Under the pieces are notes generated by a model. The model saw only the letters and a program-made list of their open reading frames with translations, was not told where the DNA came from and ran no database searches. From the IMG/VR virus record IMGVR_UViG_2711768060_000004, positions 1 through 28,644 of that record: a DNA stretch of 28,644 nucleotides; one strand, written 5' to 3'. Below are positions 1 to 19,030 of the stretch, one piece after another; the first letter of the stretch is position 1, and each line of letters opens with the position of its first letter. Made by a program: the position numbers and the translations under genes. Origin of the DNA: a virus. Lineage: Duplodnaviria; Heunggongvirae; Uroviricota; Caudoviricetes.

Positions 1-230
1 AGTACAGCACGGACAGCATCATTGATCTGCTGGCGCATCAGCGCCACCCGATAAGCCAGCGCCTCTGCCCATTTATATGCGGGATCAGATTCCACCAGAG
101 CCGAAAACAACGTATCCAGCTCCTGATACTTCGCCACTATCTGAGTGACCAGCACAGCGGTGTCCGGCACATCCACTACATCCGGTACAGGTATCGCGGA
201 CAAATCAATAATGGCCTGAGACGTTGCCAA
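1..230 (-). CDS. Baseplate assembly protein J, N-terminal part (gene runs off the window start)
   Basis: Minus-strand frame from a TTG near 230 gives (L)ATSQAIIDLSAIPVPDVVDVPD...AYRVALMRQQINDAVRAV, which resembles the remembered P2 gpJ N-terminus (MPIIDLNQLPAPDVVE...). Overlaps the upstream gp25/W gene stop as in P2. Start codon uncertain. Confidence 0.55.
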   Translation of the reverse strand, partial: MATSQAIIDLSAIPVPDVVDVPDTAVLVTQIVAKYQELDTLFSALVESDPAYKWAEALAYRVALMRQQINDAVRAV

Positions 231-561
231 TTTTTATCTCCTCGAGTCGAATCGTTTCCTGAGTTTCGTTATTCACCCCGACAAGCGTCAGCCAGGCGCA
301 GCCTTCTCCGGTCCACGTCACCTCCACCCGGCGAAGGGTCAGGCGGGGTTCCCAGCGTTCGAGGGCGGTTGCCGTTTCACGGACAATCCTCACCCGTGTG
401 AAATCATCCTGCGGGTTATCAAGCAGGCTGAACAGCCTGCTGCCGTATTCCCTGAGCAGGACCCGGCTGCCGACCGGTGTTGACAGAATATCGGTGACGG
501 ACTGACGCAGATGTTCGTTACCGTGCAGATATCTTCCGGTGGCGGAATCAATACCAATCAT
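205..561 (-). CDS. Baseplate protein W (gp25/GpW lysozyme-like family)
   Basis: Track ORF 205..651; homology starts at the internal ATG at 561 (MIGIDSATGRY...TPVGSRVLLREYGSRL...WEPRLTL), 118 aa, matching the P2 gpW/gp25 motifs TPVGSR, DYGS, WEPR. Confidence 0.7.
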   Translation of the reverse strand: MIGIDSATGRYLHGNEHLRQSVTDILSTPVGSRVLLREYGSRLFSLLDNPQDDFTRVRIVRETATALERWEPRLTLRRVEVTWTGEGCAWLTLVGVNNETQETIRLEEIKIGNVSGHY

Positions 562-572
562 GAAATTTTTCC

Positions 573-595
573 GAAAAAAAACGCCGGTGCGGCGT
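573..595 (-). terminator. Intrinsic-terminator-like hairpin plus T8 between baseplate V and W genes
   Basis: Minus strand reads ACGCCG-cac-CGGCGT (perfect 6-bp stem) followed by TTTTTTTT, directly after the V stop (596-598) and 12 nt before the W start. Confidence 0.4.
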
Positions 596-1219
596 TCACA
601 TTTCCTGGTTAGGTTTACGGGTGGTTCCCCCGCTGTCGCCGGGGTGATCATGAGTATTATAAATTTCGCGAATTTTACTCATGCTACCGGTTTTGTCGGT
701 GATCTCCTGTGAGGCACCGATATTGCCCAGAACCTGCGTATCGGCATTAATCTTCGTTTTTCCCTGTACAGTCAGGGTGTCCGTGATTTCCACCGGACCG
801 TCCAGGGTTCCCCTGCCGGTAATTTTATAGCTGCCGCCTTCAGCCAGCGTGATGAACAGGGCATTAGCCTGACGGTCGTAACGGATCTCCGTTCCGGTAT
901 CAAACAAAATAACATGCTCGTGTTCACTGCCCGCCGGTACCGGAATCGCGTCAATGTTGGCCCCCGGATACACCCGACCATTACGCAGATCACCCGCCTC
1001 CGATATCACCGTTACCGCATCTCCGGGAGCCGGGTAATTACTGACCTGCATGTAACGCCCGGACTGCACCTGAATCCAGGGCAACGGCGGTGAAAGCACA
1101 TCCCCGATATCCACCCGGACCATCACAGGGCTACCCGGGATCACCTCGTCCACCACGCCGCGACGGACCATATCCGCCACCCTGCGGCGTAACTCTGCCA
1201 CTTCATCCGCCAGACTCAT
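596..1219 (-). CDS. Baseplate assembly protein V (spike, gpV family)
   Basis: Track ORF 596..1513 trimmed to the ATG at 1219 (MSLADEVAELRRRVADMVRRG...), 207 aa. C-terminal HDHPGDSGGTT motif is typical of P2 gpV / Mu gp45. Confidence 0.7.
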   Translation of the reverse strand: MSLADEVAELRRRVADMVRRGVVDEVIPGSPVMVRVDIGDVLSPPLPWIQVQSGRYMQVSNYPAPGDAVTVISEAGDLRNGRVYPGANIDAIPVPAGSEHEHVILFDTGTEIRYDRQANALFITLAEGGSYKITGRGTLDGPVEITDTLTVQGKTKINADTQVLGNIGASQEITDKTGSMSKIREIYNTHDHPGDSGGTTRKPNQEM

Positions 1220-1769
1220 CGCCGGTGCCCTCCGCTTTCCAGATAAGACGATAATCCTGCACATGCTTTTTACCGGTTTCCGGTACTTTCCCCAGCCAGA
1301 CTTCCCGTAACGGCGCACCTGCCGGAACCGCAAACGGATCTTCGCCGGCCGGAATGTCCTGTTCAAAAGAGACCCGGAAAACGATGTAGTCGTCCAGCAG
1401 CCGGTCGAAGGTATCCACCTCAGCATCAATAAAAACCGCCGGATCAACGTTATCCAGCCCGAACGTGGCTCCATCAATCCAGTCAGATAAATCCATTGCC
1501 AGACAGCGGGCAAATATCTGCGGTTTTGACACGTTCTCCGTCTTCCCGGACCTGTCAGTCACCACAAACAGATCGCATTTCAGCGTGACCCGCATCTGCC
1601 CGTCAGCAAACGGAGCCTTGTCCCAGCCCGGTACATCCACAAACACGGCAGGCGTCACCAGTTGCGTCACTTTTTCCGGGTACTCATCGGCATCTTCCAC
1701 CCAGGGAATTTGTTTCAGACTGTCAATCACCGCCTGATGCCAGGCTCCCATCATCAATGGTTCCATCAC
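1203..1769 (-). CDS. Tail-module protein of unknown function (possible tail completion protein)
   Basis: 188-aa ORF, translationally coupled to neighbours (4-nt overlap upstream, 17-nt overlap with V). Position matches P2 R/S-type tail completion genes; no motif recognised. Confidence 0.35.
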   Translation of the reverse strand: MMEPLMMGAWHQAVIDSLKQIPWVEDADEYPEKVTQLVTPAVFVDVPGWDKAPFADGQMRVTLKCDLFVVTDRSGKTENVSKPQIFARCLAMDLSDWIDGATFGLDNVDPAVFIDAEVDTFDRLLDDYIVFRVSFEQDIPAGEDPFAVPAGAPLREVWLGKVPETGKKHVQDYRLIWKAEGTGDESGG

Positions 1770-2488
1770 TCCAGCCCCTTAAATACCCGGAATTTCAGTT
1801 CATGCTCAAAATTTTTCAGGATCAGTGCTTCCGCATCAGGGAAAACAAAATCCTCTATACGGTTCAGCATGGCTTCATAAATATCAATTTCTGCTTCGCG
1901 TACCCTTCGTCGTCCGGATGCCTGCCGGACCAAGACCGTCTTACGTCGTGAAATGCGTCCGCTCCGGTTTTCAGACTCAAATTCATTAATGAAAGCCTCT
2001 TCACCTGACCAGGTGGTGACCGGTATTGCCTCCCCGGCAGGTTTAAAACGAATCTCCCTCGCCTGTCTTCGGCGTGTGGCCGGTGCAAAACGTCCCCGTT
2101 CATCACGCAACTGATGGCGTTCGCCACGCCTTCCGCCGGTAATACGTCCGCGCAGGTCACGCACTTTGATGGCGTTCAGGCCAAACCATACCTTCGCCTC
2201 ATCAAACTCATCGCCATTTCGACGAATGATAAAAGCATTCAAGACACGGTTTTTGATCATTTTCTGACTGCGTGGCGCAACCTGTTTTTTAAACTCTGCC
2301 ATGGCCTTCATCCGCAGTGCGGACGCGGCTCTTTTCAGCGCCACGCCCCAGGCTTTACGGATCTGGCTTTTTGAACCACCCAGTTTAGCGATAATTTTCA
2401 GCACCTCATCTTCATCAATATCGACGACGAGGTTTCGTGCCAGCCGTCGCTGCCGGGCACTGCTTCGTTCATGCTCTCTGACTGCCAT
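1766..2488 (-). CDS. Arg-rich tail completion-like protein (lambda Z-like character)
   Basis: 240-aa ORF immediately after FII; Arg-rich stretch (LRGRITGGRRGERHQLRDERGRF) recalls lambda Z (LSRRRRRKKG). Assignment by position and composition only. Confidence 0.35.
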   Translation of the reverse strand: MAVREHERSSARQRRLARNLVVDIDEDEVLKIIAKLGGSKSQIRKAWGVALKRAASALRMKAMAEFKKQVAPRSQKMIKNRVLNAFIIRRNGDEFDEAKVWFGLNAIKVRDLRGRITGGRRGERHQLRDERGRFAPATRRRQAREIRFKPAGEAIPVTTWSGEEAFINEFESENRSGRISRRKTVLVRQASGRRRVREAEIDIYEAMLNRIEDFVFPDAEALILKNFEHELKFRVFKGLE

Positions 2489-2876
2489 AACGTTTACTCG
2501 GTCTGACAGGGGCGGCAGGCGTACTTCTTCCGGGTTCTCCCCGCGCGAGAGTAATGGTAATCACACCATGCCCCGCAGTACCCGACTCATCCCAGCCGGG
2601 ATCGACTACCTGATAGGGTTCACCGTGGATCATGACCCTGTCATATTTTTTCAGTCCGGCAACCCATGCGCTCCGGGTAAATAAAACTGGCGCAGTATTA
2701 CGAATTTCGCCGCTGCCAGTGTTCATCCCGGTGTTTTCTGCCGGGGCATCAAAAACGGCACGGATTCTTCTTTCCGTGCCGCCCGGATATATGCTGATTT
2801 CCGTCCCCATCGTATCCAGGATGATGTCATCCGCATCACTCATGGCCTGATCGAACAGATTATCTAACATCATCAC
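2469..2876 (-). CDS. FII: Head-tail joining protein FII
   Basis: N-terminus MMMLDNLFDQAMSDADDIILDTMGT vs lambda FII MADFDNLFDAAIARADETIRGYMGT; follows FI as in lambda. Confidence 0.75.
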   Translation of the reverse strand: MMMLDNLFDQAMSDADDIILDTMGTEISIYPGGTERRIRAVFDAPAENTGMNTGSGEIRNTAPVLFTRSAWVAGLKKYDRVMIHGEPYQVVDPGWDESGTAGHGVITITLARGEPGRSTPAAPVRPSKRYGSQRA

Positions 2877-3238
2877 TCCCGGATTTTTTCTGCCAGACCG
2901 TCCGCCAGCAACGCAGGAACTGCGGCTTCATTAACCAGCACAACACTGGAGGCCCGGGCAAACATCAACATTTTTCCCGTTACAGCATCACAGGCTGGCA
3001 TATGCGCCGTTTTCAGCATACGCACCCGGGCGAGTCCCCGCTCAGAATGCATTCCGTCGCCGGATGCATCGTTGCCCACCTCTTCCTTCCCTGTCTCCTC
3101 CCCATCGAATCCGGCGGCCTCCTCTTCCCATTCCGCCAGGCGCTGCTCAAGATCGGCTTTTGAACCTGAAATATCTGCTTCACGCCCCAGAATCACTGCC
3201 AGTTCCTGCAAACGTTCAGTCATCTGCTCTTTTGTCAT
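2873..3238 (-). CDS. FI: DNA packaging protein FI
   Basis: Track ORF 2873..3370 trimmed to the ATG at 3238 (MTKEQMTERLQELAVILGREADISGSKADLEQRLAEW) vs lambda FI MTKDELIARLRSLGEQLNRDVSLTGTKEELALRVAEL; GGGAGAG Shine-Dalgarno 5 nt upstream. Confidence 0.7.
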   Translation of the reverse strand: MTKEQMTERLQELAVILGREADISGSKADLEQRLAEWEEEAAGFDGEETGKEEVGNDASGDGMHSERGLARVRMLKTAHMPACDAVTGKMLMFARASSVVLVNEAAVPALLADGLAEKIRE

Positions 3239-3260
3239 CACATCTCTCCCGTGCGCTAAA

Positions 3261-3283
3261 GAAAAAGGCGGGAATATCCCGCC
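3261..3283 (-). terminator. Hairpin (GGCGGGAtatTCCCGCC) plus short T-run after major capsid gene
   Basis: Perfect 7-bp stem right after the E stop (3289-3291) followed by TTTTTC on the minus strand; could be a partial terminator or mRNA-stabilising hairpin. Confidence 0.35.
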
Positions 3284-3288
3284 CCGTC

Positions 3289-4317
3289 TTATTTCACCTG
3301 AACCACCACAAACGCATCCGGATCCGGCAGCACCATCAACGGCGCAGACTGCGTCATGGTATATTCGCACCCCGGGTCCCCCACCTCTAACCAGTGTTTC
3401 GGATAACGAATCGCAGAGGTGATCCCTTCACTCAGTGCCTGATTATCCTGAATGGCACCATAACAACGGACGCCTTCCGCCTGAGTGTTCCCCAGAATCA
3501 GTGTGCCTTCCGGCAGATAACGCTGTTCATCCCCGTTTTCATCGACGTAAGCGGTTTTCGCCACCACAATAGCCAGATCACCGTAATAACCCTTAAAAGA
3601 GACTACGGAGCCCAGGTCTTTCAGCGCGGTTTCCAGTTCCGATTTTGAGCCACGACGGGTATCCAGTTTTTCACGGAAAAGCTTAAAGCCATTCAGCATA
3701 CGCCAGACCGTGCCATCCATAATCGCGATATTGATGGTCCCGGAGGCAAAATCGCAGTACGCATCCAGATCGTGCGTTGGATCAAAGGTGTCAGCATTCT
3801 GCTGTGACCATCTGTTGCCGCCAGCCTGAGTAATGTTATTGGTGGCAGAGCGCCCAAAATCCACTTCCACCGTCTCAAACTGTTCCCCGCTCATGGTGTA
3901 CTTACCCTGCAGAACGGCACTGACCGCCTGCATTTCTTCCACCTGCACAATCGCCTGCTCTTCCTGCTTCAGGTTGTCCGTCAGAATACGCAGGCGGCGG
4001 TAGGCCGGGTCATTAAGACGGGCCGGATCTTCCCCCGGAAGACGTTCCACTGCCTGCTGATAATCAAAGCGGTGTTTGGGTTTTACATAACCGGGACGTA
4101 ACACGCGGGTTTCACCACCACGGCTGCGCAGCACTTTGCCTGACACCACCGGAGACACATACGCCGCAACCGGTGTTTTGCCGGTAATTTTATCCAGCAT
4201 GACTTCCTGAGTATGGAAAGTGATCGTGCGACGAAAGAACAGCTCCAGAAACAGCGCACGAAATTTCACTTTCTGCTCGGTGTACCCGAGTAACTGACGC
4301 GTGGTAAATAACCCCAT
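3289..4317 (-). CDS. E: Major capsid protein E
   Basis: 342 aa; long collinear similarity to lambda gpE (e.g. EEMQAVSAVLQGKYTMSGE, LDTRRGSKSELETALKDLG, TMTQSAPLMVLPDPD). Confidence 0.9.
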   Translation of the reverse strand: MGLFTTRQLLGYTEQKVKFRALFLELFFRRTITFHTQEVMLDKITGKTPVAAYVSPVVSGKVLRSRGGETRVLRPGYVKPKHRFDYQQAVERLPGEDPARLNDPAYRRLRILTDNLKQEEQAIVQVEEMQAVSAVLQGKYTMSGEQFETVEVDFGRSATNNITQAGGNRWSQQNADTFDPTHDLDAYCDFASGTINIAIMDGTVWRMLNGFKLFREKLDTRRGSKSELETALKDLGSVVSFKGYYGDLAIVVAKTAYVDENGDEQRYLPEGTLILGNTQAEGVRCYGAIQDNQALSEGITSAIRYPKHWLEVGDPGCEYTMTQSAPLMVLPDPDAFVVVQVK

Positions 4318-4386: not shown

Positions 4387-4722
4387 TCAGGCGTGGCTGA
4401 TAGCACTTCCCACAAATGCGTTGGCTTTTTTCACCGCATCCACAGAGTCAGGCCAGACCAGCGACTCAGTGGCAAACGTACCGCTTTTGTAGTACGTCAG
4501 TGTGGGTTCTGTTCCGGCAAGCGCCAGAGCCAGCACGCCCACTGCCGTTCCGGCTTTCTGACCATCCCATGCCACCAGTTTGCCGGTGGCGTCATCCAGC
4601 ATCAGTGGCGTCAGTGCAGGCGTGGCAGCACTGACGCCACTGGTAGCGGTTGCAGTATGCGCCGGATCGCTTCCGGCAAAAATATGCACATCCGCGCGCT
4701 TTTCCGTGGTGGTTTTAATCAT
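4387..4722 (-). CDS. D: Head decoration protein D
   Basis: 111 aa; SDPAHTATA...TPLMLD...KLVAWDG...YKSGTF matches lambda gpD almost collinearly. Confidence 0.9.
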
Positions 4723-4760: not shown

Positions 4761-6377
4761 TTACGGCATACTCATCAGCAGATCTTCTTCTCCGTGCCCG
4801 GCAGTTCCGCCACCGGAAACCGCACTGGCAGCATGCTGTGCCATAAAGCGATCAAAAAGAGTTTCCTGTGACGGTTGCGATGCCGCCGGCGCGGCTGCCA
4901 GCAGCGTTTTCGCCTGCGCCACCGTCATTCCTGGCTGTTCTGTCAGTGCCTGTGCAAGTTGTTCGCGCCCTTTCGCCTCCGGCAGCGCCATAATCTGCTC
5001 GCCGACACTTGCAGAACCCGCAACCGGTGCCGCCGCCAGTAACGTTTTGGCCTGGTCAACGGTCATTCCCGGCTGTTCAGCCAGCGCCTGCGCGAGTTGT
5101 TCACGCCCTTTTGCTTCTGGTAACGCCATAATCTGATCGCCTGTGCCTGCAGCACCGGCAGCAGGGGCTGCCGCCAGAAACGCTTTCGCCTGCGCCACCG
5201 TCATCCCCGGTTGACCTGCCAGCATCTGTGCCAGTTGCTCACGCCCCTTTGCTTCCGGCAGCGCCATAATCTGATCACCCGTGCTGTCAGTACCGGCAAC
5301 CGGCGCAGCAGCCAGCAACGTTTTCGCCTGCTCAACCGTCATTCCAGGTTGACCTGCCAGCATTTGCGCCAGTTGCTCGCGCCCTTTCGCCTCCTGACAA
5401 TTCAGGATCCCCATCACGCGCTGATTTTCCTGGGCCACCGCTTCAGCAACGGTGAGATTTTTAACAGTCATTGCATTCTCCTTCGTAACAGAGTCATTCA
5501 GTGCAGAAACCATCACTTCAACGGCATCTGCAGCATTAATCAGTTGATCAGCCAGGCCTGCATCAATGCCTGCCTGACCGTCATAAACGGCAGCCTCGGT
5601 ATTCATCACCGCCTCTGAACTCAGCCCCGTATAAAGCGCCACCTTGTCGACAAACATCCGGCGGGCCTCATCAATACGGCGCTGAAAATCTGCACGCACA
5701 CCTGCCGGCAATGCCTGAATACTGTTGCCGTCAACCTTGTGCTGCCCGGAGTAAATCAGCGTGATGTCCACCCCTTCCTGTGCCAGTTGTTTCTCGTAAC
5801 TGGTATGCGCCATCATCACGCCAATCGAACCAATTTTTGCCGTCTGCGTGACCAGCCGACGGGTACAGGCTGCCGCCAGCAACATGGCGGCTGAACAGGC
5901 CATGTCATTACACAGCGCCCACACGGGCTTCTGTTCCCGCAGACGGTAAATCATGTCAGCACAGTCAAACGCCCCGGCAGCCTGACCGCCCGGGCTGTCG
6001 ATATCCAGCAAAATGCCGCGCACATCCGGATCATTCACCGCCATCTGAAGGCGGGCCGTCAGGCCGTCATAGCCAGTCATGCCGGAGTAAGGCCGCAGGG
6101 TACCCAGTTTATGCACCAGCGTGCCGCTCACCGGAAGAATGGCGATGCCATTCTTCACCTGGTAACTCTTTGCCGGACGCTGACCGCCCGCCATATAGTC
6201 AGTCACAGCCAGTTGCATACCATCAGCATCAAGCTGAACAGCCTGCTGAGGAACGGCAAGGCTGCCGGCTCCCATCTCTTTACCCAGCGCGCAAAAGAAA
6301 ACCCGCGCATAGGCGGGTTCCAGTAAAAGCGGCTCATTAAATGCCATGGCGGCAATATGCGATAAATTACGACGCAT
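4761..6377 (-). CDS. C: Head maturation protease / scaffold fusion (lambda C with nested Nu3-like scaffold domain)
   Basis: 538 aa; position after portal B and before D as lambda C/Nu3. C-terminal third is four tandem 46-aa units (MALPEAKGREQLAQ.L..QPGMTV.QAK..LAAAP...), three with in-frame ATG. Confidence 0.8.
   Translation of the reverse strand: MRRNLSHIAAMAFNEPLLLEPAYARVFFCALGKEMGAGSLAVPQQAVQLDADGMQLAVTDYMAGGQRPAKSYQVKNGIAILPVSGTLVHKLGTLRPYSGMTGYDGLTARLQMAVNDPDVRGILLDIDSPGGQAAGAFDCADMIYRLREQKPVWALCNDMACSAAMLLAAACTRRLVTQTAKIGSIGVMMAHTSYEKQLAQEGVDITLIYSGQHKVDGNSIQALPAGVRADFQRRIDEARRMFVDKVALYTGLSSEAVMNTEAAVYDGQAGIDAGLADQLINAADAVEVMVSALNDSVTKENAMTVKNLTVAEAVAQENQRVMGILNCQEAKGREQLAQMLAGQPGMTVEQAKTLLAAAPVAGTDSTGDQIMALPEAKGREQLAQMLAGQPGMTVAQAKAFLAAAPAAGAAGTGDQIMALPEAKGREQLAQALAEQPGMTVDQAKTLLAAAPVAGSASVGEQIMALPEAKGREQLAQALTEQPGMTVAQAKTLLAAAPAASQPSQETLFDRFMAQHAASAVSGGGTAGHGEEDLLMSMP
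4880..5405. repeat. About 3.8 tandem copies of a 138-bp unit inside the C/Nu3 coding region
   Basis: In-frame ATGs recur at 4991, 5129, 5267 (138-bp period) with near-identical flanking DNA (gccataatctg..., ccagcgcctgcgc..., tcacgccc...). Confidence 0.85.
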
Positions 6378-7938
6378 CGACTTTTTCTCCCGTTGTCTGT
6401 CGGATCTGCTGCTGAAACGTGTCCTTTATCCAGATGGGGCGGGGAAGACCCGCTGCCTGTCGCTCCTGGCTTTCACGCAGTTGCTGGCGGAAAATCTCCT
6501 GATAGTCATCGCCCATCAGGGCCAGCTCTTTCTCATACGTACTTAAACCACCTTCAATACGCATCACCGCTTCCTGCACTTCCTTAAGGCCATCAATCGC
6601 CATGCGACCGGCACCAATCCACTCGGCACGACACCATCCGGAACGGGCCTCCCAGAATGAAAAACGGGATTTCGGCGGGCGGATCACACCGCGAATAAGA
6701 GCTTCCTCCAGCCAGCAGGCAAACATCTGTGATGCCAGCCGGCTGGCCACAAATTTTCGTTTGCCCATAAAATACCGCCACGACTCATTGGCGGATGCCC
6801 TGGCACTGGAATAACTGACCTGTGAATAATCACGGGAAAGCTGTTCATAGGACACCCCCAGTCCGGCAGCAATGTAACGTAACAGCGCCTTTTCCAGTTC
6901 AGAGAAACCATTATCTGCATTCTGCGCTGTCTGCAGATTCAGTGAATCCCCCGGATAAAGATGTGGAATACGGACCCCGCCCAGCTTTACCGTATTGGTG
7001 GCGTAATAACGCGCGTAGCCTTTCATGATGGTGTTCAGGGGATTTTTACCGCCATCTCCCACCCCGGCGATATATTCAAATGCTTTTTCCGAATCCAGCG
7101 TGGATTCAATCGTCGCGGCATACATCGCCCGCACCACCGCCGACTGCAGTTGCGTGGCCTGCAGTGTGTCGAGCATCTTGAGGCGCTCCATGACAGAATA
7201 AAACTGGTTGGCCCCGCGCGTCTGCCCGTCCTCCTGCGGCTGAAACACATGGATCATTCCCGGTCGCCCGGAGGGCAGCGTCGCCGCAATCCGCGTCCAG
7301 TTGCTGACACCGTAACCGGGCCAGTCATCTTCCTGAACATGGTAGGCCAGTGCTTTTCCGTACCGGTTGATTTCCACCCCGGCACGCATAAAACGATCGC
7401 CGGTACCATAACCGGGTGTACTGACACGTTTCGGGCTGATGGTTTTGAATTTCGTCCGGAATAATGACGTGGATTCCGTATCCCATACGGGCTGGACAAA
7501 AATTTCACCGTTAAATGTATGAACGCCCACCCCTTCACGAATAAATTCGGTAAACGAGCGACGCCCCTCCACATCCATCGAACCAAACACCGGATCGCAG
7601 AATTCCATCCACGCCGCCTCCACATCTTCAATAAAGGCATGTGAATCGGCTTCCGACATCCCCAGCCAGCGCCAGTTGGGCCGGTAACTCAGACGAAACA
7701 TGTGTCCGACGATATGGTCTTTATGAATTTCAACGGCGTTTGCGGCAATACCGTTATTGCGGACCAGATCATCCGCACGGGCGTTACCCAGCTGAATGGA
7801 AGGTAAGAGCGCCACGTCGGCACTTTCCGGTGCAGGCAGCCATTCCGCAAGCTGCCCGCCAAATCCGGTACCCCCTCCGGAATACCCCATACTCTGCCGC
7901 AATGGCTGCCCGTGAAGATCCACCAGTTCCCCGTTCAC
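6367..7938 (-). CDS. B: Portal protein B
   Basis: 523 aa; collinear with lambda gpB (GNARADDLVRNNG, HVFQPQEDGQTRGANQFYSVME, LNLQTAQNADNG, LLRYIAAGLGVSYEQLSR, MAIDGLKEVQEAVM). Confidence 0.9.
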   Translation of the reverse strand: MNGELVDLHGQPLRQSMGYSGGGTGFGGQLAEWLPAPESADVALLPSIQLGNARADDLVRNNGIAANAVEIHKDHIVGHMFRLSYRPNWRWLGMSEADSHAFIEDVEAAWMEFCDPVFGSMDVEGRRSFTEFIREGVGVHTFNGEIFVQPVWDTESTSLFRTKFKTISPKRVSTPGYGTGDRFMRAGVEINRYGKALAYHVQEDDWPGYGVSNWTRIAATLPSGRPGMIHVFQPQEDGQTRGANQFYSVMERLKMLDTLQATQLQSAVVRAMYAATIESTLDSEKAFEYIAGVGDGGKNPLNTIMKGYARYYATNTVKLGGVRIPHLYPGDSLNLQTAQNADNGFSELEKALLRYIAAGLGVSYEQLSRDYSQVSYSSARASANESWRYFMGKRKFVASRLASQMFACWLEEALIRGVIRPPKSRFSFWEARSGWCRAEWIGAGRMAIDGLKEVQEAVMRIEGGLSTYEKELALMGDDYQEIFRQQLRESQERQAAGLPRPIWIKDTFQQQIRQTTGEKVDAS

Positions 7939-16710: not shown

Positions 16711-16833
16711 GCCTTTTTCCCTTTTCTGGTTAACGTGACATACCAATAACTCTTGTCGAAACAGCCAGCAAGCTGAAAGACCAGTATTCACAACCACCAG
16801 CGCGTTTAACGTCCTGTACCGTTTTTCTGGCAT

Positions 16834-16856
16834 AAAAAAACCCGCTCAGCGGCGGG
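16834..16856 (-). terminator. tR'-like terminator downstream of the Q-like gene
   Basis: Minus strand CCCGCcgctgaGCGGG followed by TTTTTTTATG, about 65 nt after the Q-like stop; the gap (16857-16922) is AT-rich and would hold the late promoter/qut, boxes not confidently assigned. Confidence 0.6.
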
Positions 16857-16922
16857 CCTTGCTTACTTTGCCATCGCGTACAAAATCGGCAAAATATCAA
16901 ATTTACACGAAATGTACGCGCT

Positions 16923-17618
16923 TTAATTGATTTTTGCAATATCTCGTCGCGAAAAGGTCGCTTTTTGTTGCGCTCTCATTTTCACTGTGCAAATCAAGGA
17001 TTCTGTATCAAGATTCTTAAAAATGTCGCACATCTCACGCCAGTAGTTCGCATAATTATGGCTCCAGTTGTCAGGTTTAACTCCACACAGTCTGGCAAGT
17101 TCCTGTCGCTGGTAGTTCTCATGCCCGGTTACCCATCCCCTGACATCCTGCGCCGCCAGCCAGATTAATTTTTTCAGGCGCTCCCGTGTTTTCTCCGCAA
17201 TTTTTCTGGTACCAGATTGCGCGTTAAATTCATTCCACGCCCACTGTGTTATCGCAATCTGGTGTTCCCAGCAAATGCTGCCGCTGTAACACCACAGCAA
17301 CCAGGCTTTATGGTGTTCTTCAAGAGACAGAACCGCCCGTCGCCATGATGATGTCGAAAACTCAACCTGACTTACCAGAGGAATTGACGTCCCCTTTGCC
17401 AGCGATTGTTTCCCCGGGATTGGTGGATTATCCCGCGTGATAATTTTTCCAGTCACTTCATCGCGGTACCGGATTTTTTTACGCCTGTAACGCCCTGTAT
17501 CGAACATGGCATTCTCCTGCCAGGCCTCAAGCTGACCTTTTGTTGCTCCACTCAAATCGGCGGTGGCGATAATGAGCTGCTCACGCACAAACTGTAAATA
17601 CTGGTTATTCATGCGCAC
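16923..17618 (-). CDS. Putative late-gene antiterminator (Q-like)
   Basis: 231 aa, directly after rusA and before a terminator plus late genes, the position of Q in lambdoid genomes. Sequence is not lambda Q; assignment is positional. Confidence 0.5.
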   Translation of the reverse strand: MRMNNQYLQFVREQLIIATADLSGATKGQLEAWQENAMFDTGRYRRKKIRYRDEVTGKIITRDNPPIPGKQSLAKGTSIPLVSQVEFSTSSWRRAVLSLEEHHKAWLLWCYSGSICWEHQIAITQWAWNEFNAQSGTRKIAEKTRERLKKLIWLAAQDVRGWVTGHENYQRQELARLCGVKPDNWSHNYANYWREMCDIFKNLDTESLICTVKMRAQQKATFSRRDIAKIN

Positions 17619-17968
17619 TCCAGTTCTGTGATTTTTATCCCCAACCGACCACCAGGAACAGGCAGTCCGCGCACAATATTTATTTCATCAAACTGCTCGT
17701 CGTCTATGAGAAGTCCGGCATGCGTCAGCGCATCCAGTGGTGCTTTCAGAATATTGTCCAGGTCACGACGGCGCTTATCCGGTGGCTCTGCAACAATCTT
17801 TATCGCCAGCCTTCCGGACAGGTTTAACTTCAGCCGCTGCTGGCGAACAATAAGCGCCACATCACGGCGATAACGCTCACCGGCTTTTGATACAAAATAT
17901 GTGCTGCCACGACGACGCCAGTAGGTGTTCACCGTCGGCGGGTAAGGCAAAACAAACTCTATACGCAT
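17609..17968 (-). CDS. rusA: Holliday junction resolvase RusA
   Basis: 119 aa; LPYPPTVNTYWRRRG...PDKRRRDLDNILKAPLDALTHAGLLIDDEQ...GGRL matches the RusA signature (PDxRRRDLDNxxKAxxDALT). Confidence 0.85.
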   Translation of the reverse strand: MRIEFVLPYPPTVNTYWRRRGSTYFVSKAGERYRRDVALIVRQQRLKLNLSGRLAIKIVAEPPDKRRRDLDNILKAPLDALTHAGLLIDDEQFDEINIVRGLPVPGGRLGIKITELECA

Positions 17969-17980
17969 CAGTAACCTCTT

Positions 17981-19030
17981 TTACCCGAGCACGCCGGTTG
18001 CAAAGGCGTGATCAAGAAAACGAAAAATTAAATCAACCTGGGAACCATGCTTTTCTTCAAACGCCAGCGGATCCGCATGAAGTTCATTGTGATGCTCCCG
18101 GCACAGCGGTAACGTGAAAATATCGTGGGCTTTTGTTCCCATTCCACCCTGACCATGACCAATCAGGTGATGGGGATCGTTGGCTGGCTGACCACAACAC
18201 GCACACGGCTGTGTCTTTACCCAGCGTGTGTATTTCTCATTTATCCAACGGCGACGTTTAGGTCGCTTCATGAAAGATTCCGGAGACTCCGGATCTACGG
18301 CAATGCTGACCACCGTCTTTTCCTGTGGTGCGTTCTGTTGCTGGTGGACGTGAGGCAACGGCGCAAGATTTTTTGTGCGCTGCTTCAGTATGCTGGTGGC
18401 GGTCTGCTCTCCCGGTATGATGTCGCTTTCGCGGTACACCGAGCGGATTTTTTCCGCACGTAATCCCAGCGAACGACGCAATACTGTCTCCGGTAGCGCG
18501 TCCGCCACCTGATTGCAGACTGCCCACCAGGATAATTCAGCCAGCGATAATTCCCGCTCCTGTGTGCCATTCATTGCCTGGCGTATGACGTCAATCATCC
18601 ATGCTGTCAGGTTTTGGTGAGCAAGTTGCCCGAGTGATTCGGAAGTCTGGTCACGCAGCTGGTTGTCGCAGTGCCAGCACAACACCATCGCGCCGGTACC
18701 GTAACGATGTATGACGGTTTCACTGTGATGGTAGTCACCATGAGGCCACTGGCAGGATTTGACATGACGCAGGAGCCAGTCAGACAATGCACCTGCGCCG
18801 CCGGCAGCACGAATCACCCGCTCATCGCTGAAAAATGGCAGCAGAGATTTATCTTCCGCCAGCGGCTGGCAAGCGGCAGGAACGACCCCGGACGGCAGCC
18901 CGCGCATGCTTTTCGGTTCAGGCTCCACCAGCACACGCCCCTGCATAAACAAAGGCATCGCATCAGGACCGGGCCTGAAAAGTACAATCCCCAGACGGTG
19001 AGCAATTTCAGGAGTCACTAATACCCGCAC
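17981..19030 (-). CDS. DUF968-family protein (YdfU-like) with C-terminal HNH-like Cys/His motif
   Basis: 349 aa, same length and position as Qin ydfU; C-terminus CACCGQPANDPHHLIGHGQGG...LPLCREHHNELH resembles an HNH/zinc-finger nuclease motif. Confidence 0.6.
   Translation of the reverse strand: MRVLVTPEIAHRLGIVLFRPGPDAMPLFMQGRVLVEPEPKSMRGLPSGVVPAACQPLAEDKSLLPFFSDERVIRAAGGAGALSDWLLRHVKSCQWPHGDYHHSETVIHRYGTGAMVLCWHCDNQLRDQTSESLGQLAHQNLTAWMIDVIRQAMNGTQERELSLAELSWWAVCNQVADALPETVLRRSLGLRAEKIRSVYRESDIIPGEQTATSILKQRTKNLAPLPHVHQQQNAPQEKTVVSIAVDPESPESFMKRPKRRRWINEKYTRWVKTQPCACCGQPANDPHHLIGHGQGGMGTKAHDIFTLPLCREHHNELHADPLAFEEKHGSQVDLIFRFLDHAFATGVLG

Follow-up and report, generated by a model that had tools for sequence, protein, structure and literature searches.

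In phage lambda the scaffolding protein Nu3 contacts the proteins E, B and C as well as other Nu3 molecules. Correct procapsids depend on it, but its stay there is transient, since C degrades it ahead of DNA packaging (PMC3224144). The mechanism of Nu3 is still poorly defined: its initiator structure has been called 'ill-defined', and the protein is described as intrinsically disordered. In P22 and phi29, helix-turn-helix motifs of the scaffold bind the N-arm of the capsid protein (PMC11922011). The GenBank records of phage 21 (M81255, also OL657228) mark a 'Tri1 box', a 'Tri box' and a 'Tri3 box' in gene 6, with the remark 'function unknown; putative'. The window described here, the 28,644 nucleotides of the tailed-phage record IMGVR_UViG_2711768060_000004 (Caudoviricetes), carries a homologue of lambda gene C whose scaffold part holds four tandem copies of a 46-residue unit. 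This array is a four-unit member of the repeat already annotated in phage 21, which has been on record for decades, and such arrays are common in enterobacterial prophages. The Tri boxes (phage 21 locus L002, 2448-2551, 2588-2698 and 2729-2842) coincide with the three units of that phage. No paper discussing repeats in Nu3 or its scaffold relatives, the 'Tri box' of phage 21 or copy-number variation was found in the searchable literature. What is added here is a family-wide picture of unit number, of recurrent expansion, and of an identical shell protein across copy numbers. The analysis also shows that a helical module of roughly 35 residues is all that is widely conserved in Nu3-type scaffolds.

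A four-unit array in the scaffold part of the C gene

Tandem Repeats Finder places a single substantial array at 4886-5394, with a period of 138, 3.7 copies, 79% matches, no indels and a score of 554. The array is in frame within the minus-strand open reading frame (ORF) 4761-6377, which encodes 538 amino acids (aa). At the protein level it consists of four 46-aa units, the first residues of which are 325, 371, 417 and 463 (window 4854-5405, minus strand). The gene and its units are as follows, with percentages referring to nucleotide (nt) identity and L004, L005 and L009 being related loci.

4761-6377, minus strand: head maturation protease/scaffold gene, lambda C homologue, 538 aa (ORF, Pfam, PHROGs and gene context)
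5268-5405, minus strand: repeat unit 1, aa 325-370, LNCQEAKGRE... (translation; 93-99% to unit 1 of L005, L009 and L004; matches the single lambda unit)
5130-5267, minus strand: repeat unit 2, aa 371-416, MALPEAKGRE... (translation; 'extra' relative to three-unit relatives; best counterparts are L005 units 2 and 3, at 98%)
4992-5129, minus strand: repeat unit 3, aa 417-462 (translation; 98% to unit 4 of L005 and unit 4 of L009)
4854-4991, minus strand: repeat unit 4, aa 463-508 (translation; 96-100% to the last unit of L005 and L009)

The four units share the motif EAKGREQLAQ.L..QPGMTV.QAK..LAAAP, followed by a variable linker rich in Ala, Gly, Ser and Thr. In unit 4 the start of the C-terminal tail stands in place of the linker, and an ATG opens units 2, 3 and 4. 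When the scaffold region is compared with itself at a period of 46, identity is 0.60, a value that 1000 shuffles, with 0.21 at most, never approached. Between units, protein identity is 63-78% over the whole unit and 77-94% over the 35-residue core; DNA identity is 65-78%, and the longest identical run in register is 21 nt. An earlier note on this DNA had described a roughly fourfold in-frame amplification of a 138-bp (46-aa) unit in a C/Nu3 gene, with three units opening on ATG, and both its coordinates and its description agree with Tandem Repeats Finder and the translation. Its characterization of the units as near-identical holds for the protein, over the core, but not for the DNA. The contrast that it drew with lambda, 538 aa against 439, is also correct, since lambda C has 439 aa and the repeats lie in the scaffold part, where they lengthen the scaffold.

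The gene itself is a lambda C-type S49 prohead protease/scaffold homologue, as that note had also recognized. The Pfam domain Peptidase_S49 (PF01343) is found at aa 146-290 (E=1.6e-33) with 116 bits, where the cutoff is 24.9, and the protein matches phrog_53, head maturation protease, with E=1e-218. The gene lies between the portal gene and the decoration and capsid genes. E. coli STEC309 has this gene too, again between portal and head decoration genes, under the annotation 'S49 family peptidase'. The protease part precedes the scaffold part in the protein.

5472-6377, minus strand: N-terminal protease part, aa 1-302, with a putative Ser162/Lys214 dyad (conservation, lambda alignment, and AlphaFold2 (AF2) model with Foldseek)

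In an alignment of 60 homologues S162 is nearly invariant and K214 is invariant, and they align with S166 and K218 of lambda C. We take these two residues to be the putative catalytic pair, by comparison with SppA and gpC. Foldseek matches the AF2 model of this part to the SppA structures 4kwb and 3rst with E of about 1e-11, and in the fold search with the full-length model only the protease domain was matched (SppA/ClpP).

The scaffold part is modelled as short helices joined by linkers of low confidence. The full-length AF2 model has a mean predicted local distance difference test score (pLDDT) of 68, with three short helices per unit at pLDDT 70-80 and linkers below 50. A model of the unit alone, built on a 63-sequence unit alignment, has a helix at residues 4-17, a loop (GQPGMT), and a second helix at 24-33. 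The nearly invariant unit columns are E5, A6, G8, R9, L12, A13, L16, A17, P20, M22, A27, L31 and A33. They fit a small hairpin of helices that has a hydrophobic interface and, at its N-terminal end, a charged motif that is conserved. A solved structure for the unit was not found, with no sequence match among Protein Data Bank (PDB) chains and no significant fold match.

Several other resemblances in the repeat region were dismissed. Weak Pfam matches to DUF732, T2SSK, Bac_DNA_binding and Casein are all under their cutoffs. Scaffold residues 80-151 (within 4761-5471, minus strand) weakly resemble ribosomal protein bL12 (E=0.07), with an Ala-rich hinge followed by '...GL.LKEAK.LVE.AP'. Homology to bL12, which came up when the scaffold was compared with all PDB chains, was rejected as chance or low complexity, convergent composition (a flexible Ala/Pro hinge plus a short helix) being more probable. 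An antisense ORF at 5211-5618 (plus strand, 135 aa) lies opposite the array and is itself repetitive. It is without support as a gene, and is treated as a mirror artefact of GC-rich in-frame repeats.

Copy number among relatives and the history of the units

Tandem repeats are a classic source of error in short-read assemblies, and the earlier note had raised the concern that the repeat number might reflect collapse or expansion of the array during assembly. The window represents an E. coli prophage. The same gene, 1617 bp long, is present in the 60 best-matching complete E. coli genomes at 97-99.7% identity (4 of them differ by 1-5 bp), so that no fewer than 60 complete genomes, each assembled independently, show this architecture. 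Clusters of the 538-aa protein have hundreds of members, from E. coli, E. albertii, E. marmotae, Citrobacter and Salmonella. In addition, the units differ at 22-35% of DNA positions and thus are not confusable by an assembler. An assembly artefact is therefore rejected, and we give it practically no weight. The array is an ordinary and common prophage allele, with hundreds of examples among sequences from E. coli, Citrobacter and Salmonella.

As had been predicted, strains differ in copy number, with three, four and five units in close relatives that include complete genomes. Counted with a unit profile, the 120 close homologues have three units in 75 proteins (mostly from Salmonella), four in 42, five in 3 and one in 2. 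The wider family is different in this respect. An exhaustive search of 1.84 billion cluster representatives with the unit profile, which also detects lambda-type proteins, recovered 595 proteins, and among the best 150 of these there is one unit in 134, two in 11 and three in 4. In these 150 representatives a median of 42 residues follows the last unit, which usually puts the unit close to the C-terminus, whether the protein is of the S49 type or a short stand-alone scaffold. The sequenced phages with one unit are lambda, N15, phi80 and HK225, and those with three are phage 21, Gifsy-1, ev017 and 4A7; none has a four-unit array. A single unit is the ancestral norm, multi-copy arrays occur only in an enterobacterial clade, and expansions recur.

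The units of the window are old. Over the unit cores (codons 5-35), synonymous divergence (dS) between units is 0.7-1.8 and the ratio of nonsynonymous to synonymous divergence (dN/dS) is 0.02-0.13, so that the duplications are old and each copy is under strong purifying selection. A recent amplification of the window allele is rejected on the same grounds, with dS of about 1, although recent duplications do exist in relatives. In a tree of units, the three-unit family (phage 21, Salmonella, Edwardsiella and Trabulsiella) clusters by position, pointing to an ancient triplication. In the clade of the window, units 2-4 group together instead, suggesting later re-amplification or homogenization.

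Comparison with loci of the same clade shows where units have been added. In the five-unit locus L005 the counterparts of window units 1, 2, 3 and 4 are units 1, 2/3, 4 and 5, respectively (93-98% nt identity). Units 2 and 3 of L005 have 100% DNA identity, indicating that their duplication is very recent. The three units of L006 have their best matches in window units 1, 3 and 4, and L006 is without a close counterpart to unit 2, so that unit 2 is most parsimoniously the added unit. In complete genomes the alleles are 1479 bp (three units), 1608 or 1617 bp (four units) and 1755 bp (five units, in nine Shiga toxin-producing E. coli (STEC) genomes), and RM8082 has a four-unit allele of independent origin.

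The capsid protein does not follow these changes. It is 342 aa long throughout and 96-98% identical across three-, four- and five-unit loci, and between STEC309 (four units) and STEC005 (five units) it is identical at 342 of 342 positions, which indicates that copy number can shift without a change in the shell protein. Unequal recombination or slippage has added and removed units many times over, with the shell protein unchanged. The suggestion that the array is recombination-prone is overstated for the window allele, which is stable and has units diverged to the DNA identities given above.

Three proteins in the homologue set have unusual structures. P0044 (657 aa, E. coli), a phage 21-type C protein, has an internal duplication of ~156 aa, running from the last part of the protease domain through the leader to units 1-2. 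It thereby has five units, and between them the leader and the Nu3 start region occur a second time. In P0041 (610 aa) the C gene is broken within unit 3 and continued by a baseplate-V-like sequence, as either a real deletion/fusion or a misassembly. P0121 (270 aa) has a methyltransferase-like N-terminus fused to a three-unit scaffold region, and again may be a real fusion or a misassembly.

A putative nested scaffold start upstream of the array

The scaffold appears to be encoded as a nested ORF that begins at M303 and contains the whole array. Its parts are listed here.

5478-5483, minus strand: internal Shine-Dalgarno sequence (SD) AAGGAG, 6 nt upstream of the M303 ATG at 5469-5471 (read from the sequence)
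4761-5471, minus strand: putative nested Nu3-like scaffold ORF, M303-P538, 236 aa, 23.9 kDa, isoelectric point 4.8, with all four units inside (homology to phage 21 gp6; translation inferred)
5406-5471, minus strand: scaffold leader, aa 303-324, ...AEAVAQENQRVMGI, conserved with lambda (homologue alignment; predicted helix 310-325)
4764-4853, minus strand: C-terminal tail, aa 509-538, DRFMAQH...EEDLLMSMP, outline conserved with the lambda C/Nu3 C-terminus (homologue alignment)

M303 is the sole in-frame ATG with a canonical AAGGAG at 6 nt. Its SD pairs with the anti-SD at -8.8 kcal/mol, at least the strength seen at neighbouring true gene starts. SD and ATG are retained at this site in every relative examined, namely L005-L008, phage 21, where the ribosome-binding site (RBS) is annotated, and lambda (M309). 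In L005 they are retained between flanks that are otherwise unrelated. In the phage 21 records, scaffolding protein gp6 is annotated with an RBS and starts at the equivalent residue 302 of gp5. These features suggest that M303, upstream of the whole array, is the conserved nested start, in which case the scaffold product of 236 aa would hold all four units. Such a scaffold consists of the 22-residue leader, the four units and the 30-residue tail, and the array makes up most of it.

The lambda gene has a comparable site. At M309 (CAGGAGGG) the pairing is -10.8 kcal/mol, against -6.9 kcal/mol at the GenBank-annotated M239 start. Lambda record J02459 (L003 833-1438) annotates nu3 as 201 aa from M239, with a weak SD; the M309 form is 131 aa and 13.4 kDa, and the phi80 and N15 records annotate the short form of nu3. 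The size of lambda 309-439 (131 aa, 13.4 kDa) agrees with what we take to be the size of purified gpNu3.

The ATG codons that open units 2-4 had led to the proposal of several nested Nu3-like products, that is, ribosomes starting at these codons to make scaffolds with three, two and one units besides the full one. Some features of the junctions are consistent with this. When the extended 3' tail of 16S rRNA is considered, GGTGATC before M371 pairs at -13.3 kcal/mol and GGCGATC before M417 at -11.1, so that GGT GAT CAG and GGC GAT CAG at these two junctions are near the 1st-5th percentile of positions in the gene, and of 285 later units in homologues 221 open with Met. At M463, however, the extended pairing is only -3.9 kcal/mol and there is no SD. 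Pairing with the core anti-SD is weak at all three junctions (M371 -6.8, M417 -4.6 and M463 -2.8 kcal/mol), and the aligned spacing, about 10 nt, is long. The junction pairing is also absent in the Cronobacter relatives (GGCGAACAAATT, -3.7) and in phage 21. Unit 3 of L006 opens with ATT (Ile), and the other 64 of the 285 later units have Leu (61) or Ile (3) in place of Met, a pattern which indicates that Met acts at this position as a hydrophobic structural residue and not as a start codon. By contrast, the SD and ATG of M303 are conserved even amid unrelated sequence. The proposal is not sustained, with the conserved start lying upstream of the array and the junction ATGs not being conserved starts, and we regard a ladder of nested products as quite improbable. 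Of the junction codons only M371, with GGTGATC at a long spacing, might still yield a minor product in this lineage.

Proposed role of the units

The description of the array as modular, selected, copy-number-variable and contained within a nested scaffold is one that we hold with high confidence. For its function, the best overall explanation, which we consider probable, is a four-unit Nu3-module scaffold that acts as multivalent beads on a string. The late transcript would yield a little full-length protease (538 aa) and abundant acidic scaffold of 236 aa from M303. This scaffold would consist of four helix-loop-helix beads on flexible linkers rich in Ala, Gly, Ser and Thr, together with the leader and the 30-aa tail. 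Each bead may be a binding module whose target is the capsid protein (its inner face or N-arm), other scaffold molecules, or both, and a scaffold of three to five beads would be multivalent, with raised avidity. That the units bind capsid protein as their specific role is suggested by analogy with P22 and phi29, and is tentative, somewhat short of an even chance. Since the protease shares the C-terminal region of the scaffold, it may be co-assembled into the procapsid. After assembly the S49 protease would degrade the scaffold, plausibly within the linkers, and the fragments would exit. The exact copy number appears to be tolerated and not critical.

The main alternative is that the units serve mostly as 'stickers' between scaffold molecules or as docking sites for portal or protease, the array then building a scaffold core or recruiting the portal. 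Nu3 self-associates and is needed for portal incorporation, Nu3-Nu3, Nu3-B and Nu3-C contacts have been reported (PMC3224144), and helix modules with flexible spacers fit a design for multivalent self-association. However, the Nu3 contacts could just as well be made by the conserved leader or the C-terminal tail, and an interaction between Nu3 and E has been reported as well (PMC3224144); we see self-association or docking as the main role of the units as possible but unlikely. A weaker alternative is near-neutrality, in which one unit suffices, as in lambda, and the extra in-frame copies are harmless passengers whose number drifts. The single unit of lambda, N15 and phi80, the pairing of the same capsid protein with four or five units, and the recurrent gains and losses are all compatible with drift. 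Against it, the low core dN/dS applies to every unit, including the 'extra' unit 2, despite near-saturated dS, and the clustering by position of the three-unit family across genera implies that all three units have been kept since before the divergence of these prophages. Neutral copies would decay or vanish, but fewer than three units are found in no relative of this clade (120 homologues). Near-neutrality is accordingly given a low probability, below that of self-association or docking.

The multivalent scaffold that we favour can be extended to a more speculative 'stickers-and-spacers' model, which we consider a long shot. Here the module number (1, 3, 4 or 5) would set the valence and tune the nucleation, fidelity or rate of procapsid assembly, the turnover of units would be adaptive and not drift, and a minor M371 product might contribute. 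If valence tuning is real, a natural allelic series with an identical capsid protein makes the mechanism of Nu3-type scaffolds directly testable. The natural series of one, three, four and five copies, including four and five with identical capsid protein, is in any case a ready experimental handle on scaffold valence.

Neighbouring genes and related prophages

The C gene lies in a head module of lambda type, with the following neighbours given as context.

6367-7938, minus strand: portal gene, overlapping the start of C by 11 nt (ORF; annotated as portal in relatives)
4387-4722, minus strand: head decoration protein gene, lambda D-like (ORF; PF02924 and annotation in relatives)
3289-4317, minus strand: major capsid protein gene, lambda E-like, 342 aa, the presumed scaffold partner (ORF; PF03864 in relatives)

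The gene order is terS-terL-W-portal-C-D-E-FI in the window and in relatives, and the same order is annotated in a 99.7%-identical relative. The prophage is a mosaic (window 1-3288; L004 17140-29617), and in its relative STEC309 (L004), 95.6% identical to the window, the lambda-type head module is joined to a P2-type contractile tail module. The tail module of STEC309 contains baseplate V/W/J/I, sheath, tube, tape measure, X and D genes. In the three-unit Cronobacter relatives L007 and L008, the same head module occurs with lambda-type siphovirus tails (Z, U, V, G/T and H). The STEC309 terL gene (L004 10315-12230) is annotated as frameshifted, and this prophage may be defective; the window terL (8148-10106, 652 aa) is intact.

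Directly upstream of the lysis genes, STEC309 encodes a 'scabin-related ADP-ribosyltransferase' and an 'AB5 toxin binding subunit', an ArtAB/pertussis-like pair (L004 5535-6753). An ArtAB-like toxin pair was looked for in the window and is absent, and the window diverges from STEC309 exactly there (about 13276-14700). At this site the window has a small ORF with a TerB domain (13513-13938) and an ORF without a Pfam match (14108-14692). The region of about 13276-14700 looks like a cargo-swap site. The content of the upstream late-regulatory region (15316-19030) is typical of lambdoid phages: genes at 15316-16362 for an N6/N4 DNA methylase, at 16923-17618 for a Q antiterminator and at 17981-19030 for a DUF968/HNH-like protein.

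Comparison with known systems

Phage 21 gp5/gp6 is the same gene pair in the same place, between the portal and decoration genes. It has a nested scaffold start with an SD at the equivalent residue (aa 302, against 303 in the window) and a tandem unit of about 46 aa (EAKGRE...PGMTV...LAAAP) in the scaffold part, and its protease part is 74% identical. It differs in having three units, which are about 56-63% identical to one another at the nt level and orthologous by position to the units of Salmonella prophages. The window has four units in place of three boxes, and its units 2-4 form their own clade, making it a copy-number variant of the Tri-box repeat.

Lambda gpC/gpNu3 resembles the window in its S49 protease with aligned Ser and Lys, its in-frame nested scaffold, a similar C-terminal tail, a conserved leader (AENxRIMGI), and one homologous unit (LNCEEAHGREEQARVLAETPGMTVKTARRILAAAP). 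Unlike the window, lambda has this single unit after a ~55-residue leader of low complexity. Counted from M309 the lambda scaffold has 131 aa (the old GenBank annotation gives 201 aa) and that of the window 236 aa, and the whole proteins are 59% identical.

Gifsy-1 and other Salmonella prophages have 'lambda gpC homologues' of the same architecture with tandem units, and the Gifsy-1 type is the closest sequenced phage to the window in the scaffold part (62% protein identity). These proteins differ in having three units that are diverged by position, with a within-protein identity of about 50-65%, whereas the cores of the window units reach 77-94%.

Herpesvirus UL26/UL26.5 is also nested in frame; its protease is packaged by way of a C-terminal region that it has in common with the abundant scaffold. 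Its protease is unrelated to that of the window in fold and sequence, and it has no tandem module array.

P22 gp8 and phi29 gp7 are comparable only in how they work. Each is an internal scaffold, present only transiently, that contacts the capsid N-arm through a small helix-turn-helix (PMC11922011), and the window unit is predicted to be a helix-loop-helix. There is no sequence similarity and no significant structural match between them and the window scaffold. They have one motif per chain and no fused protease, and the P22 motif is basic, whereas the scaffold of the window is acidic.

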